Source of the DNA: Sedimentisphaerales bacterium
GTDB taxonomy: Bacteria; Planctomycetota; Phycisphaerae; Sedimentisphaerales; SM23-30
DNA length: 64,000 bases
Strand: one strand, 5' to 3'
NCBI GenBank assembly: GCA_963666285.1
Contig: OY762711.1
Under the pieces are notes generated by a model that saw nothing but the letters and a program-made list of their open reading frames with translations, was not told where the DNA came from and made no database searches. Made by a program: the position numbers and the translations under genes. Below, piece by piece: positions 14,730 to 47,100 of the stretch (positions within the stretch are counted from its first letter, which is position 1; each line of letters opens with the position of its first letter).

Positions 14730-15081
14730 AGCTTTAAAACAAGTCGTCCTTGCCAGCGAATTATTCCTGATGTCAACGTACATCAGGACACCTTAATTTT
14801 TCATTTTTCACTATTCATTTTTCATTTAATTGCGGCCTCTGCGAGAGACAAATCTTATCAAAATCACTCTGCTTAATATCTTCCAATCTCCATCCAAACC
14901 AACATCGTTAAGGGCATAGTAGCTCAGGCATCCCTGCCTGACAATAAACCAGCCCTCGCACAAGCGACAACCTCCTTTTCTTTTTTCATTTAGCGAAGCT
15001 TGCCTTCTTCCTCCTCGCTTATCTCTCCTAACTTTTCAACCTCAATTTCACATTTTTTTTTCATCCTTCATCCTTCATCCT
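14730..15081 (-). repeat. repeat copy A, distal part (paralogue of 19780-19921)
   Basis: Read on the minus strand it begins AGGATGAAGGATGAAGGATGAAAAAAAAATGTGAAATTGAGGTTGAAAAGTTAGGAGAG, matching the + strand at 19781-19840. It shares ...CTTGTTTTAAAGCT at the far end. An A-specific insertion of ~150 nt is present. Confidence 0.8.
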
Positions 15082-15800
15082 GTCGAGTAGGCATGTCGCC
15101 TCCTTTCATTAATTTAACAAATTCTGAGTTTCATTATATTTTGTGCAAGGAAACGCATGCCCCTCACAGAACCGGACTTGAAGATTTCCCTCATCCGGCT
15201 CTTCATTAATGCTCACTTTGACGGCTACATAAGGCAAAGTAATGTGCCTTGTAGAAGTCTCCGATAGAAGACGCTGTGGAACGTTCATGGTTTCTTCCAG
15301 TTCAGTGCCTGGCCAATATCCTGTTTCGCCTTTACACATTAATGCTGACCCCTTCGAGTGCCTCAAACTTCGAAACTCAACAGGCATTACCCTGTTTACT
15401 CCTCTACTATGAGTCAGTCCGACTACCAAAATGCCATACGGCCGCGTCACGGTTTCAGCTCCTTGGCCGCTTCCTTTCGGAGCACTTCGGTTCTCCCAAG
15501 TTCCAATGCAGTCAGTTCGTTTGCCCGCTACGGACTCAGACCCCGGCTCGTCGATATATGCTCGCCGTATTTCGCATATATCGATATTGGCTTCAGGCAT
15601 ATGAAAACCCTGGCCCGGATGCGATAAGGAATAATTTCGGGGCTCAACACCTTCACTTGCGTTGTGGCTGACAAACTCCTTTCCCGGGGCTTCGTACAGT
15701 TCGTTACCTCTCTGCACGCCCGGTGCTGTAATGGGCGGGTGGCTAGCCCTTACCCATGCCGGATTGGCCGGCTTGACTACATTAGCTTCGCTTGGCGCTC
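15082..15800 (-). mobile_element. ORF-less group II intron, copy 1 (in non-coding DNA)
   Basis: The 5' end is GAGCGCC. Domain V is GAGCCGGAUGAGGGAAAUCUUCAAGUCCGGUUC (15201..15169). The domain VI helix GAGGGGCAUG/CAUGCCU-A-CUC has a bulged A 7 nt from the 3' end, and the 3' end is ...CGAC. It is absent from the paralogous site at 19776/19777. It differs from copy 2 by 2 substitutions. Confidence 0.8.
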
Positions 15801-16064
15801 TCATACCTCATCCTTCAGGTGCCGTTTCACGGCACCTGTCTGGTCTGCCCACAAATTACCAATCTCAATTTCCAGGTTAACAAACGCCTTTTAATCTTTA
15901 TTTCATACCCCCTTCCGCGCCCTCTCCGCGCTCGTTCTCAGCCCGCCGTAAGCCTCCGCGCGGCCTCCGTTGCCCGCAATTGCCCGGCGTTTAACGCCGT
16001 AAAATCGACTTTGGTACCACCAAACCCAAAATCAGCCAAAATATTTCAACTTCTTGCACACAAT
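15801..16064 (-). repeat. repeat copy A, proximal part (inverted partner of 19516-19779)
   Basis: About 264 bp are nearly identical (~4 mismatches) to the reverse complement of 19516-19779. It contains the hairpin CAGGTGCCG-TGAAA-CGGCACCTG and a GC-rich core. Confidence 0.9.
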
Positions 16065-16527
16065 CTAACCCAAACAGATTAATATATGAACCGCCTCAGG
16101 CAAGATACCAAGACACAAAAATAAACAAACCAGAAGAGATACTCACAGATAAGGAACACCCAAAATTCTCGTCAGAAAATTTCGGTTAGAAATTTGAAGT
16201 CTAAAAAACAGATGGCATAATATGGCATAATATAGAAATAGATGATGGTTAAGTAGTCGCAACCTGAGAGGAAGTATGATGGTTAAGTAGTCGCGTAATC
16301 TGGGGAAGGTATATGGAAGCAGGCTCAATATCGAGTAAATGGATAGTGGATTTGATATCAGGTAAAAGATGGTAGTAAAAGTAGTTACAGTCTCAAACTG
16401 GAAATAGAAGCAGTTGTAATATCAGGATGGATCACGGCATAGCGAAGTCTATTTAGGGCTGTTTAGAGTCAGGCATATTTGATAATATTTTACCTTAACA
16501 TATTATACAGCAATATATTAAGATCGA

Positions 16528-19258: not shown

Positions 19259-19314
19259 GGTATTTGATATTAGGTATTAGGTATTAGGTATTAGGTATTA
19301 GGTATTAGGTATTA
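19259..19314 (+). repeat. tandem heptamer array (GGTATTA)x8, 6 perfect units
   Basis: Seen directly: GGTATTT GATATTA followed by 6 x GGTATTA. The array ends 10 nt from the permease start codon and is followed by GGGGCGGTATCGCC, the anchor motif on the opposite strand. Confidence 0.95.
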
Positions 19315-19515
19315 GGGGCGGTATCGCCTATCGGCAAGACTAATCTGATATAGCCCCGCAAACTAATTATATTAGTACGCTTTTATGTATCGGTACGCTG
19401 CTAAAATTAAATCCAATTTGGGGTCAGAATGTGCCCGTGGCAGAATATATATCTTCTGACTGAGATTATACGATGGGTGGCCGGGTTGGTTCTGTATTAA
19501 TTAGAATGGAGTAAA

Positions 19516-19921
19516 ATTGTGTGCAAGAAGTTGAAATATTTTGGCTGATTTTGGATTTGGTGGTACCAAAGTCGATTTTACGGCGTTAAACGCCGGGCAA
19601 TTGCGGGCAACGGAGGCCGCGCGGAGGCTTACGGCGGGCTGAGAACGAGCGCGGAGGGGGCGCGGAAGGGGGTATGAAATAAAGATTAAAAGGCGTTTGT
19701 TAACCTGGAAATTGAGATTGGAAATTTGTGGGCAGACCAGACAGGTGCCGTGAAACGGCACCTAAAGGATGAGGTATGAAGGATGAAGGATGAAGGATGA
19801 AAAAAAAATGTGAAATTGAGGTTGAAAAGTTAGGAGAGAGAAGCTTCGCTAGATGAAAAATGAATAATAGAAGTGAAGAATTGAGGTGTTCGCCTGGCGG
19901 CTCACGGCTTGTTTTAAAGCT
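19516..19921 (+). repeat. repeat copy B, the uninterrupted paralogue ('empty site') of copy A
   Basis: It reads the GC-rich core, then the hairpin AGGTGCCGTGAAACGGCACCT, then AAAGGATGAGGTATGA-AGGATGAAGGATGAAGGATGAAAAAAAAATG without the 719-nt insertion. Confidence 0.9.
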
Positions 19922-20699: not shown

Positions 20700-22247
20700 C
20701 TATTTAATCTCTTCCATTTTTTCGATCTTGAAAAATGACTGTGTTACTTTATAGGCATCAAGCGGGTTGCCATCTATGACAGTAGAAGTAATATAAGCAG
20801 GACATTGGCTCTGGTGCGGCCTGGTAGCATCGATTGTATACCAATTATCATTTATCCATACCTGGGTCCAGGCATGGCCGTAAAAGGCATTCTTAACCGT
20901 AGCAAACTCGTCGACATAGAAATAACCAATCGCTACCCTGGCCGGTATCCCTGCAGACAGGCACATTCCCGCAGTTAAAACCGCATGCTCGGTGCAGTCA
21001 CCAGATTTGTTTTTAGCTATATCGAGAGCAGAAGCCCAACCTGTGCTGAGATTTTTATTGTTAATATATCCATGCACAAAGGCTTCGATTTTTTTAGCTG
21101 CTTTCCACGCATCTCTTTCATCTCCTACAGCTTCCAAGGAAAGTTTCCTGATGGCCGGATCATTATATTTGAGCCAGATATTATTAGGATTGAAACATTT
21201 TTCGGCCTGCAGATATTTATGCAAGGATGCATGAGTGTTATCATTAGATTTTTTAAATGCAAGTGATGGATCAATTTCAAAAATATCTGTCGGCAGCTGC
21301 TGACTGACCGGCGGCTGATAGGGCCTGACCTCAATGGTACATTCGTCATTTAATTGTTTGGCAATTACCTGATGATCGTCCTGATAGAAATCAACATCAG
21401 CTTTAGCAAATTTCAAATGGTAACGCATAGCTTTGGCCCTGGTCGGGTCTGGTGAATCAGCAGGGGCTTTGATCGAAACATCGGCGAGGATCTCAGCGAC
21501 ACCTTCATTGGCAAGAGCTTCTTCCATTTCGGCGACGATAAACTGGAACTTCAACCCCATCATTTCGATCGAAGATATCACATCATTACCATCTTCATCA
21601 ATATAGGAGACAGTCTCGATAGCTGTTCCTTTGAGGGTAAGAATAGTAGTACATTTGTACAGCGATTCATCGTAACCGGGCAGGTTAGTCTTATCACCGA
21701 TCACAACCTTGTAATCGACTTCCGACATATCGCCAGGCGAAAAAGCTGTGCCGGTAACGGTAACACCCGGAACAATACCATCCTTCATTGCTTCCTGCAT
21801 GAGCAGTTCTGCTGGCTGGACCTTGTCAGATATTTCCATCTCAAACTTGTTAGTACTGCCACTGATAGCCTGAAGAATATCATACTTGCCCTGCAGGTTG
21901 AGACTGCCATCAACCTTAACTACCGCCGGACCAAACTCCATAGATGAATTGAAACCGCTGAGTTTATATTTAGAAGCCTGGCTGTCCCATTTGAACTCGG
22001 TAGCTTCGGATACTGCTGCGGTAATCTTTGCACCGGCCCGACCGATATTGAGTTTGACGAATTCGCGAGACTTGACAAACTCCGGTGAAGTTTCGCTTAC
22101 GTGATGAATATAGCCGGCTTTCTGGTCGTTGAGCATAACCTTAAACCATTGATCGGCAGTTTCTTCCGGCAGCTGTTCAACAGCAGCAACCGCAGTTGCA
22201 AACATAACCAATATTAGAGATGATAATAATTTTTGTCGAGTAGGCAT
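20700..22247 (-). CDS. secreted transglutaminase-like cysteine protease-fold protein. Coordinates use the intron-internal ATG; the spliced form would be join(22957..22954,22234..20700).
   Basis: The Cys-His-Asp transglutaminase core is present (SGDCTEHAVLTAGMC...GHAWTQVW...IDAT). The N-terminal signal peptide is either MPTRQKLLSSLILVMFATAVAAV (unspliced) or MKKLLSSLILVMFATAVAAV (spliced). Confidence 0.8.
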   Translation of the reverse strand: MPTRQKLLSSLILVMFATAVAAVEQLPEETADQWFKVMLNDQKAGYIHHVSETSPEFVKSREFVKLNIGRAGAKITAAVSEATEFKWDSQASKYKLSGFNSSMEFGPAVVKVDGSLNLQGKYDILQAISGSTNKFEMEISDKVQPAELLMQEAMKDGIVPGVTVTGTAFSPGDMSEVDYKVVIGDKTNLPGYDESLYKCTTILTLKGTAIETVSYIDEDGNDVISSIEMMGLKFQFIVAEMEEALANEGVAEILADVSIKAPADSPDPTRAKAMRYHLKFAKADVDFYQDDHQVIAKQLNDECTIEVRPYQPPVSQQLPTDIFEIDPSLAFKKSNDNTHASLHKYLQAEKCFNPNNIWLKYNDPAIRKLSLEAVGDERDAWKAAKKIEAFVHGYINNKNLSTGWASALDIAKNKSGDCTEHAVLTAGMCLSAGIPARVAIGYFYVDEFATVKNAFYGHAWTQVWINDNWYTIDATRPHQSQCPAYITSTVIDGNPLDAYKVTQSFFKIEKMEEIK

Positions 22248-22953
22248 GTCGCCTCCTTTCATTAATTTAACAAATTCTGAGTTTCATTATATTTTGTGCA
22301 AGGAAACGCATGCCCCTCACTGAACCGGACTTGAAGATTTCCCTCATCCGGCTCTTCATTAATGCTCACTTTGACGGCTACATAAGGCAAAGTAATGTGC
22401 CTTGTAGAAGTCTCCGATAGAAGACGCTGTGGAACGTTCATGGTTTCTTCCAGTTCAGTGCCTGGCCAATATCCTGTTTCGCCTTTACACATTAATGCTG
22501 ACCCCTTCGAGTGCCTCAAACTTCGAAACTCAACAGGCATTACCCTGTTTACTCCTCTACTATGAGTCAGTCCGACTACCAAAATGCCATACGGCCGCGT
22601 CACGGTTTCAGCTCCTTGGCCGCTTCCTTTCGGAGCACTTCGGTTCTCCCAAGTTCCAATGCAGTCAGTTCGTTTGCCCGCTACGGACTCAGACCCCGGC
22701 TCGTCGATAGATGCTCGCCGTATTTCGCATATATCGATATTGGCTTCAGGCATATGAAAACCCTGGCCCGGATGCGATAAGGAATAATTTCGGGGCTCAA
22801 CACCTTCACTTGCGTTGTGGCTGACAAACTCCTTTCCCGGGGCTTCGTACAGTTCGTTACCTCTCTGCACGCCCGGTGCTGTAATGGGCGGGTGGCTAGC
22901 CCTTACCCATGCCGGATTGGCCGGCTTGACTACATTAGCTTCGCTTGGCGCTC
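22235..22953 (-). mobile_element. ORF-less group II intron, copy 2 (inside codon 2 of the transglutaminase-like gene)
   Basis: The same 719-nt element as 15082-15800, with domain V at 22354..22322. Both copies share the 5' exon flank TATGA and the first 3' exon base A. Confidence 0.8.
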
Positions 22954-23057
22954 TCATAATGATATACCTTTGGCTGTATTAGTAAACTTTTGCCGTTTTT
23001 AAGTTGCAAAAACAGCGAAAGTTAACGTGTATATTTCAGAGAGCAATACAGCATTTG

Positions 23058-23086
23058 ATTATATGCGATGAGATATGTTTCTGCAA
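23058..23086 (-). promoter_or_regulatory. sigma-70-like promoter TTGCAG-17 nt-TATAAT
   Basis: On the minus strand, TTGCAG is at 23086..23081 and TATAAT at 23063..23058, about 100 nt upstream of the exon-1 ATG (22957). Confidence 0.5.
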
Positions 23087-23121
23087 GATAAGAGATATAG
23101 GCTGGGCGGTCGGAAATGATT

Positions 23122-24210
23122 TTATTTTCTTCTAACTGAAGAAGCCAGTTTCCCGCAGAATTGCCTGAACTGCAACTCAACTTCACCGGTAGGTTCAGTA
23201 ATATACGATTGGAACAGTTCATACCCGGCCCTGGCACTCCAAAGCCTGGTCTGCGAATAGAGTTCATGTGCATCGCGCAGTTCGGCTGATAATTGCAGGT
23301 TACCGGAAACGGCATCGCTATAGATAGCGGTGTAACCCTTGCGATATATGCCGTATTCATATTCGAACATAAACCTGGCCAAAGCGTAGAGGTGGGCATA
23401 ATAAGAAGATATAATAAGCTCTTTTTGCTGGTCAGATATATTGGACATTGTATCTAAAATCGAACCGGGATCTGACCGGACCAGTTTAGATATCGGGAAT
23501 GATATACCTGCCTGCATGGTACGTTTCAGGTCCCAAAGCCTGTTGAGATTGTGGCGGGGAGAAAATTTTAGTCCGTCTGAATCCCAGATGAAAGATTCAA
23601 GATACACCGCCGACGATTCCGCGAGCCAGCTCGGCAATGTGTCGGCCATATTCAACCCGCAATACTGATGCCAGGCTTCATGGGTAAGAACGGAAAAATC
23701 TGCGGCACGATTGATCTGCCAGGCTACGCAGACATCCTGATAGCAATATGCCCCGGAATGAATTTTTTCGAAGGTAGATGCCTGCCGTCCGGAAAAATGT
23801 TTTGTAAAGGAGAGCCACTGGTCACGATTTTTAAAGTAATATATCGTACCGACCTGCTCATTTTTGACCGGGGCATACAGCTTAAAATTCTGATATGCAG
23901 ATTCCAGCAGCATAGGAAGCCGTCGAAGAATGAGGCGGTCGGTCGAAGTTGTATGGATGGTATAATGCGCAGTAACAATAGTCAGAGCGTCATAAGAAAT
24001 ATCATCAAAGGCGATATTCGACTTTTCAACTGAACGAACGGTAGGCAGCAAACGAATCATTTCCAAGCGATCGGTCGAATCGGGCCGGAGGGATTTTGTG
24101 GAAGGTAAGCAGCCGCAAATGATCATTAACGGCAGCAACAAAAAGAAAATGCCGAATTGCAGATATCCCATGATATTTGAGCATCTCATCAATTCACTAT
24201 TCTTCTTCAT
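23122..24210 (-). CDS. putative zinc metallopeptidase lipoprotein (HExxH)
   Basis: LTHEAWHQY contains the HExxH motif. The N-terminal signal ends in a lipobox-like LMIICGC. From memory it resembles planctomycete DUF1570-type proteins; that assignment is low confidence. Confidence 0.5.
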   Translation of the reverse strand: MKKNSELMRCSNIMGYLQFGIFFLLLPLMIICGCLPSTKSLRPDSTDRLEMIRLLPTVRSVEKSNIAFDDISYDALTIVTAHYTIHTTSTDRLILRRLPMLLESAYQNFKLYAPVKNEQVGTIYYFKNRDQWLSFTKHFSGRQASTFEKIHSGAYCYQDVCVAWQINRAADFSVLTHEAWHQYCGLNMADTLPSWLAESSAVYLESFIWDSDGLKFSPRHNLNRLWDLKRTMQAGISFPISKLVRSDPGSILDTMSNISDQQKELIISSYYAHLYALARFMFEYEYGIYRKGYTAIYSDAVSGNLQLSAELRDAHELYSQTRLWSARAGYELFQSYITEPTGEVELQFRQFCGKLASSVRRK

Positions 24211-47040: not shown

Positions 47041-47100
47041 ATTCGTGCCTATTCGTGTGAACCCTGCACTGTACGGTGCAAGGGGATTCGTGGTTAAAAT
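47041..47100 (+). repeat. 60-nt 'TTCGTG-hairpin-TTCGTGGT' element, copy 1
   Basis: The sequence is ATTCGTGCCTATTCGTGTGAACCCTGCACTGTACGGTGCAAGGGGATTCGTGGTTAAAA. It has the same architecture as 52838-52900 and 53680-53742. Confidence 0.85.

Follow-up and report, generated by a model that had tools for sequence, protein, structure and literature searches.

An ORF-less group II intron one base after a start codon, and its relatives with a putative replacement translation start in domain VI

Three target specificities have been recognized for bacterial group II introns, namely homing sites, terminators and attC sites, and bacterial introns of this group that lack an open reading frame (ORF) were called rare in the same 2015 review. 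A lineage associated with start and stop codons has been assigned to subgroup IIB1 (Michel et al., 2007, via Gomes et al., 2025, PMC12584367), with Avi.groEL and EcKTE56.groEL as examples. According to PMC12584367, domain I of all its members has at its base a 5'-subterminal insertion of 300-700 nucleotides (nt), every member homes to a single housekeeping gene of its own, and the mechanism of colonisation is called unknown. Here we analyze a 64,000-nt stretch of contig OY762711.1 from a Sedimentisphaerales bacterium (the window), in which a group II intron, at 22235-22953 of the minus strand, interrupts the gene for a secreted transglutaminase-like protein one base after its start codon. We read it, with a probability of roughly 0.8, as a start-site-targeting, ORF-less deletion derivative of a mobile group II lineage, the host gene of which would be expressed either by splicing or from a Shine-Dalgarno (SD) sequence and AUG located in domain VI of the intron.

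The intron, its boundaries and its host gene

The window holds two copies of the intron, A and B, which differ at 2 of their 719 positions (Table 1). Copy A matched the Rfam model RF02005 (group-II-D1D4-6) with 112.2 bits over 22684-22920 on the minus strand (model positions 1-225; threshold 49), as well as RF00029 with 52.3 bits over 22235-22356 on the same strand (threshold 40). The corresponding minus-strand matches of copy B scored 116 and 56 bits. Copy B is surrounded by the arms of an inverted repeat, with 15801-16069 corresponding to 19511-19779 and 15017-15081 to 19780-19844, and the second arm is uninterrupted at the equivalent point. Copy B and this internal empty site, with its junction at 19779/19780 (here and below, a slash marks a splice or insertion junction), thus define both intron ends exactly, as 5' GAGCG... 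and 3' ...CUCGAC, and the constant offset of 7153 between the copies places copy A at 22235-22953. In both cases the 5' flank is TATGA and the first 3' base is A. The flanks of copy A read ...CATTATGA/intron/AAAAATTATTA; copy B is not in a gene, and a start at its site reads MKDEG followed by a stop codon (a 5-codon ORF). Neither 719-nt copy contains a reverse transcriptase (RT)/maturase ORF, and the Rfam scan detected these two ORF-less copies only.

Domain V is canonical, and the RF00029 match together with the fold accounts for domains V and VI; in the fold of domain VI, with a free energy of -47.2 kcal/mol (z -7.0), an A bulges out 7 nt before the 3' end. The architecture of domains I-IV was recovered through the RF02005 match, the domain I model beginning 33 nt from the 5' end of the intron and domain V beginning at nt 600. 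Complementarity between the exon-binding sequence (EBS) and the intron-binding sequence (IBS), and precise insertion, were evident from the empty-site paralogue, from EBS1 and from covariation in relatives. The intron ends in AC (consensus AY), and where the consensus has GUGYG, both window copies and two relatives (L095 and L116) begin with GAGCG. GAGCG is also the 5' end of a well-studied self-splicing yeast mitochondrial intron.

Table 1. Positions of the intron copies, of their structural and targeting elements and of the host gene in the window
Feature	Position	Strand	Basis or remark
Group II intron copy A, ORF-less, 719 nt	22235..22953	(-)	Rfam matches; ends set through copy B and the empty site
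Group II intron copy B, ORF-less, 719 nt	15082..15800	(-)	Non-genic site GGTATGA/AGGATGA
Uninterrupted paralogue of the copy B target, ..GAGGTATGA/AGGATGAAGG..	19770..19789	(+)	Junction 19779/19780
Domain V, catalytic hairpin with AGC triad	22322..22354	(-)	RF00029 alignment and fold
Extended domain VI rod, branch-point A at 22241	22235..22318	(-)	Fold
Intron-borne SD AAAGGAGG	22252..22259	(-)	Pairs with UUUCCUU in folded domain VI
Intron-borne ATG	22245..22247	(-)	Same phase as the host ATGA; 3' splice site 13 nt further on
EBS1 loop UUUUCAUAU	22752..22760	(-)	Rfam structure alignment; covariation in relatives
Candidate EBS2 UAUUCCUU, anti-SD-like	22779..22786	(-)	Directly 3' of GAGCCCCGAAA
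IBS1 TTATGA	22954..22959	(-)	Includes the native ATG (22957-22955) and the first base of codon 2
Host SD-like AAAGGTATA, candidate IBS2	22963..22971	(-)	7 Watson-Crick pairs and one U-U with UAUUCCUU
Promoter-like TTGCAG (23086-23081), 17-nt spacer, TATAAT (23063-23058)	23058..23086	(-)	Read from the sequence
Exon 2, rest of the secreted transglutaminase-like ORF to its stop	20700..22234	(-)	

Ligation of 22954 to 22234 yields ATG AAA AAA TTA..., that is MKKLLSSLILVMFATAVAAVEQ..., continuous with the ORF that ends at 20700. The spliced product would have 512 amino acids (aa) and matches Pfam Transglut_core (4.8e-17); exon 2 is an intact frame of 511 codons, and splicing would restore a signal-peptide-like N-terminus. 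The closest homologues, P0002 and P0003, are 62% identical over the full length, and their N-termini, MHKYIIAILTLAIFSTISAQQLP and MHKKIISILIFALSCTTLFAQQLP (MHKYII... and MHKKII...), start at the position equivalent to the exon-1 ATG. At the orthologous loci (L001 and L002) there is no intron, and the order of genes is the same: an rsmH-like gene, a LysM gene, two small or unknown genes and then the transglutaminase-like gene. The promoter-like arrangement is kept upstream of both, as CTTGC(A/C)G-N17-TATAATCAAA, and a CCAAAGG motif of SD type before the ATG is common to the window locus and L002. A simple consensus promoter scan did not have TTGCAG-17-TATAAT in its list. That the orthologues begin at an equivalent ATG behind the same promoter indicates, by comparison of the loci, that the exon-1 ATG at 22957 is the ancestral start and that the intron splits codon 2. 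At the start the orthologues read ATGCATAAA, which leaves the exact intron-less sequence unconfirmed, and a search of metagenomes for the exact ligated-exon 26-mer gave no match.

The original prediction, made from the sequence, had placed the intron at 22235-22953, one nucleotide after the ATG, and copy B, the empty site and the Rfam group II domains led to the same boundaries. It had further proposed that excision joins the ATG to the transglutaminase ORF of 20700-22234 and rebuilds a signal peptide, that this ATG is the native start, and that a TTGCAG-17-TATAAT promoter lies upstream; the ligated frame, the N-terminus it would encode and the syntenic, intron-less orthologues agree with it on each of these points. 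Two details need adjustment. The in-frame TAA said to lie 7 codons upstream is present, but as the eighth codon before the ATG, with 7 codons in between; and the intron-less orthologues proposed as a check do start at the same place, but with ATGCATAAA instead of the expected ATGAAAAAATTA.

Insertion sites and target recognition

A database search with the spurious 231-aa ORF of the intron brought up 252 "proteins" that are in fact relatives of the intron, and in every relative whose locus was retrieved an SD-like motif and then ATGA precede the intron. Two scans extended the sample. A genome scan with a 23-nt pattern from the domain V/VI junction, over one genome per species, returned at least 112 loci, and an independent metagenome scan, anchored only on the first 22 nt of the intron, returned at least 107 unique flanks; the counts that follow, in this and later sections, are among the matches listed for each. 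The genome matches came from Planctomycetota, Verrucomicrobiota, Kiritimatiellota, Lentisphaerota, Omnitrophota, Spirochaetota, Bacillota, Fibrobacterota and others. The mapped unique 5' flanks ended in ATGA in 38 of 43 cases and in ATGT, ATGG and GTGA in one case each, with an SD-like 4-mer 3-12 nt upstream in 34 of the 43. The first base of the 3' exon was A in 100/112, and an in-phase ORF of at least 60 codons followed in 65/101, as against 8 and 14 in the other two frames. The metagenome flanks gave a similar picture: ATGA in 88/107, GTGA in 11/107 and ATGG in 4/107, NTG at -4 to -2 in 104/107, an SD-like motif in 78/107, a peak of G at -13/-12 upstream of the insertion and an in-phase downstream ORF in 11 of 14 (none in either of the other frames). 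By chance, ATGA would be expected at about 0.4% of sites. In the complete genome of Sedimentisphaera salicampi (CP021023.1), a full-length copy follows CAGGAGaacaaATGA in a prepilin-type gene, with the spliced reading MKNKAFTLIELLVV, and another copy follows the ATGA of an IS3 orfA. ATGA sites outside genes are occupied too, namely that of window copy B and that of L008 (a 6-codon ORF). The original prediction had held insertion within codon 2 of a cellular gene to be uncommon; for this lineage, the flanks indicate that insertion after the ATG-A of a translation start is the norm.

Some loci deserve separate mention. Around position 700 of L084, two introns stand in tandem, the 3' end ..CTACTCGAC of one directly abutting the 5' end GTGCGCCAAGTTAAGC.. 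of the next. A comparison of L008/L011 with L009/L012/L014 shows a single intron, behind an identical or almost identical 5' exon (gtggagcaaaaATGA), followed by three alternative 3' exons, which suggests recombination between intron copies or assembly chimeras at the repeat. A metagenome-assembled genome of Planctomycetia (MFD00082.bin.2.49) carries at least 9 full-length copies (L022, L028, L038, L085, L091, L100, L108, L117 and L119), with a domain VI that has no clear SD (..ctgaaagaccatattATG).

The EBS1 loop provides a basis for the preference for ATG-A. Its UCAUA is complementary to the exon UAUGA, and the core UCAU to AUGA; insertion occurs after ATG-A because EBS1 pairs with the exon end. 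The U located 5' of UCAUA could in turn pair with the A that opens exon 2. Where the exon departs from ATGA, the loop departs with it: ACAU is found with ATGT/, CCGUG with CACGG/, UCAC with GTGA/ and CCAU with ATGG/. Positions further upstream also covary, since the base at exon position -5 can pair with the EBS1 loop in 65 of 86 cases, compared with 38.0 +/- 4.3 for permuted partners, and that at -6 in 59 of 86, compared with 44.3 +/- 3.3; none of 5000 permutations reached either value.

A second pairing probably involves the SD region. The 6-8 nt that follow GAGCCCCGAAA, for which many relatives have UAUCCUU or UCUCCUU, are complementary to the exon at about -16 to -8. The mean best run of pairs between this segment and the exon was 4.69, as compared with 4.36 +/- 0.12 for permuted partners (reached in 7 of 2000) and 3.64 +/- 0.11 for shuffled exons (reached in 0 of 1000). 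In three relatives (L032, L016 and L061) the covariants are not SD-like: UAAAAU is found with AUUUUA, UUAUCC with GGAUAA and UAUUCUU with AAGAAUA. The pyrimidine-rich, anti-SD-like segment is thus probably EBS2, complementary to the SD in most members; we call it probable because its register shifts by 1-3 nt. L061, from an uncultured member of the Pirellulales, is a full-length intron at the non-ATG site ..AAGAATAggaCACGG/, with a matching EBS1 (CCGUG) and candidate EBS2 (UAUUCUU). Judged by these paired changes, it looks like a naturally retargeted member.

Domain VI and the competing explanations

The 3' end of the intron has the form AUG(C/U)CUACUCGAC/ (in DNA, ATG(C/T)CTACTCGAC/) in 110 of the 112 genome-scan matches. 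Of the unique domain VI sequences, 82 of 89 have an SD-like 4-mer 4-11 nt before this AUG, with a peak at 8, whereas the background for such a motif, at other intron positions and before other internal ATGs, is 15-17%. The SD persists though the length of the distal part of domain VI varies between 22 and 118 nt. No stop codon interrupts the stretch that leads from the domain VI AUG to the splice site, and the 13-nt spacing puts this AUG in the same codon phase as the host ATG-A. Unspliced mRNA could therefore still yield the host protein, in which M-(S/P)-T-R-Q would replace M-K; at the window locus it would begin MPTRQKLL.... The public gene call for the host protein, P0001 (515 aa), begins at the intron-internal ATG and hence with this sequence, and the annotated start of the S. 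salicampi prepilin-type gene is likewise placed at the intron AUG. MPTRQKLL had been noted as an alternative N-terminus in the original prediction, and the conserved SD and AUG of domain VI are its source. In the folded domain VI rod both the SD and the AUG are base-paired, which suggests that folding of the ribozyme and loading of a ribosome at domain VI would be mutually exclusive.

These elements suggest the following sequence of events. EBS1, 5'-UCAU-3' extended by 1-2 variable bases, would pair with NN-AUG-A at the end of the 5' exon, the U beside it (or an equivalent base) would match the A that opens the 3' exon, and U(A/C)UCCUU, a segment located some 25 nt 5' of the EBS1 loop, would probably pair with the SD region at about -16 to -8. 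Reverse splicing would then leave the intron behind ATGA and ahead of the remainder of codon 2, typically at ATG A/AA. In the window, copy A would have entered the transglutaminase-like gene and copy B a look-alike, non-genic site, recent movement being presumably driven in trans by a 443-aa RT/maturase. Two routes to the host protein would be open thereafter. Maturase-assisted splicing would give ATG AAA AAA TTA... and MKKLL..., and initiation on unspliced RNA at the SD AAAGGAGG and AUG of domain VI would give MPTRQKLL..., with a basic n-region before the same signal peptide. The more general idea is that the lineage may read translation-initiation signals by ribosome-like pairing, the CAU of EBS1 being the initiator-anticodon sequence and EBS2 being anti-SD-like, and that its own SD and AUG may keep host genes expressed when the intron is unspliced. 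This we put forward tentatively, at somewhat short of even odds.

Several points weigh against the view of a start-site-targeting derivative with two routes of expression. Both splicing in vivo and the use of the intron AUG for initiation are predictions from the sequence. The AUG and the bases that follow it form part of the branch-point helix and are conserved for catalysis regardless, the SD is in a stem and its richness in purines could be partly structural, and an agreement in phase has a prior of 1 in 3. The window copies start with GAGCG, most relatives with GUGCG. Covariation between EBS2 and SD that is specific to individual introns is modest, with a register that varies by 1-3 nt, and the enrichment of SD motifs may come in part from the targets being real gene starts. 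The placement of the cognate RT in the source genome is also tentative, and the family samples of the two scans are phylogenetically related.

The structural points lend themselves to a simpler account, in which the intron depends on splicing alone, the SD and AUG of domain VI are a structural by-product that is never translated, and the host gene relies on splicing. The AUG does pair with GGGGCAU in the basal helix of domain VI, as the SD does with UUUCCUU, and the stretch AUGYCUACUCGAC, which holds the branch-point A and the 3' splice site, would be constrained in any event. We nevertheless consider this account rather unlikely. It does not lead one to expect an SD at the proper distance in nearly all domain VI variants (82/89, against 15-17%), nor the freedom from stop codons between the AUG and the splice site, and gene callers consistently start host genes at this AUG.

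It is improbable, in our view, that the tie to start codons arose after insertion, with the introns inserting broadly and only the harmless copies at gene starts surviving. The SD and AUG of domain VI would indeed make start sites the least harmful places to be, and roughly two in three of the occupied sites are genuine gene starts. However, EBS1 covaries with the exon at -1, -4, -5 and -6, and the retargeted L061 has matching changes in EBS1 and EBS2. ATGA sites outside gene starts are occupied as well (copy B and L008), which argues for recognition rather than survival alone.

The chances that the interrupted transglutaminase-like gene is an inactivated, decaying pseudogene seem smaller still. 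Having no ORF of its own, the intron would require a maturase supplied in trans, and the window encodes none; exon 2, however, is intact over 511 codons and 62% identical to the orthologues over 100% of its own length, the region of the catalytic Cys, His and Asp matches Pfam, the intron is young (2 differences between the copies) and offers an in-frame SD-AUG, and a cognate RT is apparently present in the genome. An accidental, one-off insertion into codon 2, to which one could be led by the fact that only one of the two window copies is in a gene, is very hard to credit with ATGA at 88/107 and 38/43 sites against about 0.4% by chance.

Mobility, internal reading frames and relation to known introns

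The autonomous relatives of the window intron are 1.93-2.07 kb long and encode an RT/maturase of about 440 aa with a YADD motif and no endonuclease domain. The RT of the full-length relatives scored 339 bits against TIGR04416; it is roughly equidistant from the solved RTs of classes IIC, IIA and IIB, and the structures do not separate these classes. The window intron shares about 80% identity with the full-length introns in two parts, nt 3-458 and the region that starts with domain V, and this identity on both sides of domain IV makes it a deletion derivative that has lost sequence in domain IV. The near identity of the two window copies points to recent movement. An RT of the family with 443 aa, an intact YADD and 11 cluster members (P0339) appears to be encoded elsewhere in the source genome. 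From these sequences, mobilisation in trans, and splicing with a maturase supplied in trans, are plausible.

Each window copy forms a single open frame of 231 codons, from the host ATG to a TAA (22262-22957 and 15109-15804). This TAA overlaps an in-frame ATG (TAATG), five bases before the SD of domain VI. The frame has entered databases as P0117, a spurious protein of 231 aa whose cluster has 7 members on the source contig. We considered whether read-through of the frame is under selection and found no support for it: read-through is peculiar to the window copies, since in most relatives the frame from the host ATG comes to a stop some 30 codons on, the substitutions lack codon periodicity (0.17, 0.23 and 0.20 for the three codon positions), and open stretches on the antisense strand are equally long (mean 96 vs 103 codons).

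In full-length introns the reading frames form a chain. After the ORF that begins at the host ATG (30-35 codons) comes ORF2, of about 124-131 codons, and then the RT; this order was seen in L128/L129 (2517-4332; S. salicampi), L041, L052, L054, L059, L061, L071, L083 and L090. In many copies GAGGAGG lies 8-9 nt before the ATG of ORF2, and the end of ORF2 falls between -14 and +22 nt relative to the RT start codon. For the ORF-less introns L003, L030 and L044 this end lies 11-14 nt before the domain VI ATG, and for the read-through ORF of the window the distance is 14 nt. The ORF2 frame has 6 derived stop sites, as against 15 and 24 in the other frames, and yet no coding periodicity. In one clade, the abutting ORFs may serve as a translational relay that uses the ribosome-binding site of the host to express the RT.

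Other repeats in the window were noted around copy B and beyond. The sequence of about 335 nt that holds copy B occurs twice, in inverted orientation and 98% identical (15017-16069 and 19511-19844), flanking a 3.4-kb segment with an S41 peptidase gene and an ABC-2 permease gene. It contains a perfect hairpin, GGTGCCG-TGAAA-CGGCACC, and an (AAGGATG)n run, and the intron site holds its only ORF, of 5 codons; a tandem (GGTATTA)n run at 19270-19316 adjoins it. Three 91-nt repeats with the hairpin GTGAACCCTGCACC..GGTGCAAGGG are located at 47041, 52839 and 53680.

If the generic targeting of SD-ATG-A proposed here is true, it would represent a fourth target class beside homing sites, terminators and attC sites, and it would explain how retroelements can reside at low cost inside many cellular genes of more than 10 phyla. 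Small introns of this kind have been overlooked. The review had called ORF-less bacterial introns rare; a pattern of 23 nt alone retrieved at least 112 loci of the present lineage. The presence of these introns leads to errors of annotation, such as the false protein P0117 and the shift of host starts to the intron AUG. An intron that brings its own in-phase start signal also suggests a design for non-polar targetron insertions.

Among described families, the TeI3 introns of Thermosynechococcus elongatus and the dnaN introns of Trichodesmium resemble the present lineage in that ORF-less copies occur beside RT-encoding relatives and have multiplied recently. These families differ in having many diverged homing sites or an intragenic location, and neither a tie to start codons nor translation signals at the 3' end have been described for them. 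With group IIC introns, which target terminators or attC sites, the lineage shares the use of a generic, genome-wide signal through a very short IBS1 and a compact RT of about 420-450 aa without endonuclease domain. Unlike in group IIC, the target is inside a coding region, with flanks of the form SD-ATGA, an EBS2-like pairing is probably present and the ribozyme measures about 600-700 nt. Ribozymes of group IIC are much smaller than this. No terminator-like site was found in 22150-23250, and on this ground, together with the SD-ATGA flanks, we rejected group IIC or terminator targeting for the window intron.

There is also a likeness to the IIB1 lineage, as far as the description in PMC12584367 goes. 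Its members are also bacterial group II introns at start or stop codons, as the window intron is, one base after an ATG, and in the groEL introns the host frame also stays usable, by replacement of the stop codon. In contrast to that description, the window intron has no 300-700-nt insertion within its 719 nt in total, its lineage occupies the starts of many unrelated genes, and its domain VI carries an SD and AUG. For these three reasons we do not place it in the IIB1 lineage. In the full-text literature covered, which did not extend to Michel et al. (2007) and Simon et al. (2008), we found no description of start-codon targeting combined with an SD and AUG in domain VI. The window intron is one member of a large and, it appears, not yet described group II lineage that has start codons as its targets and brings a putative replacement translation start with it.

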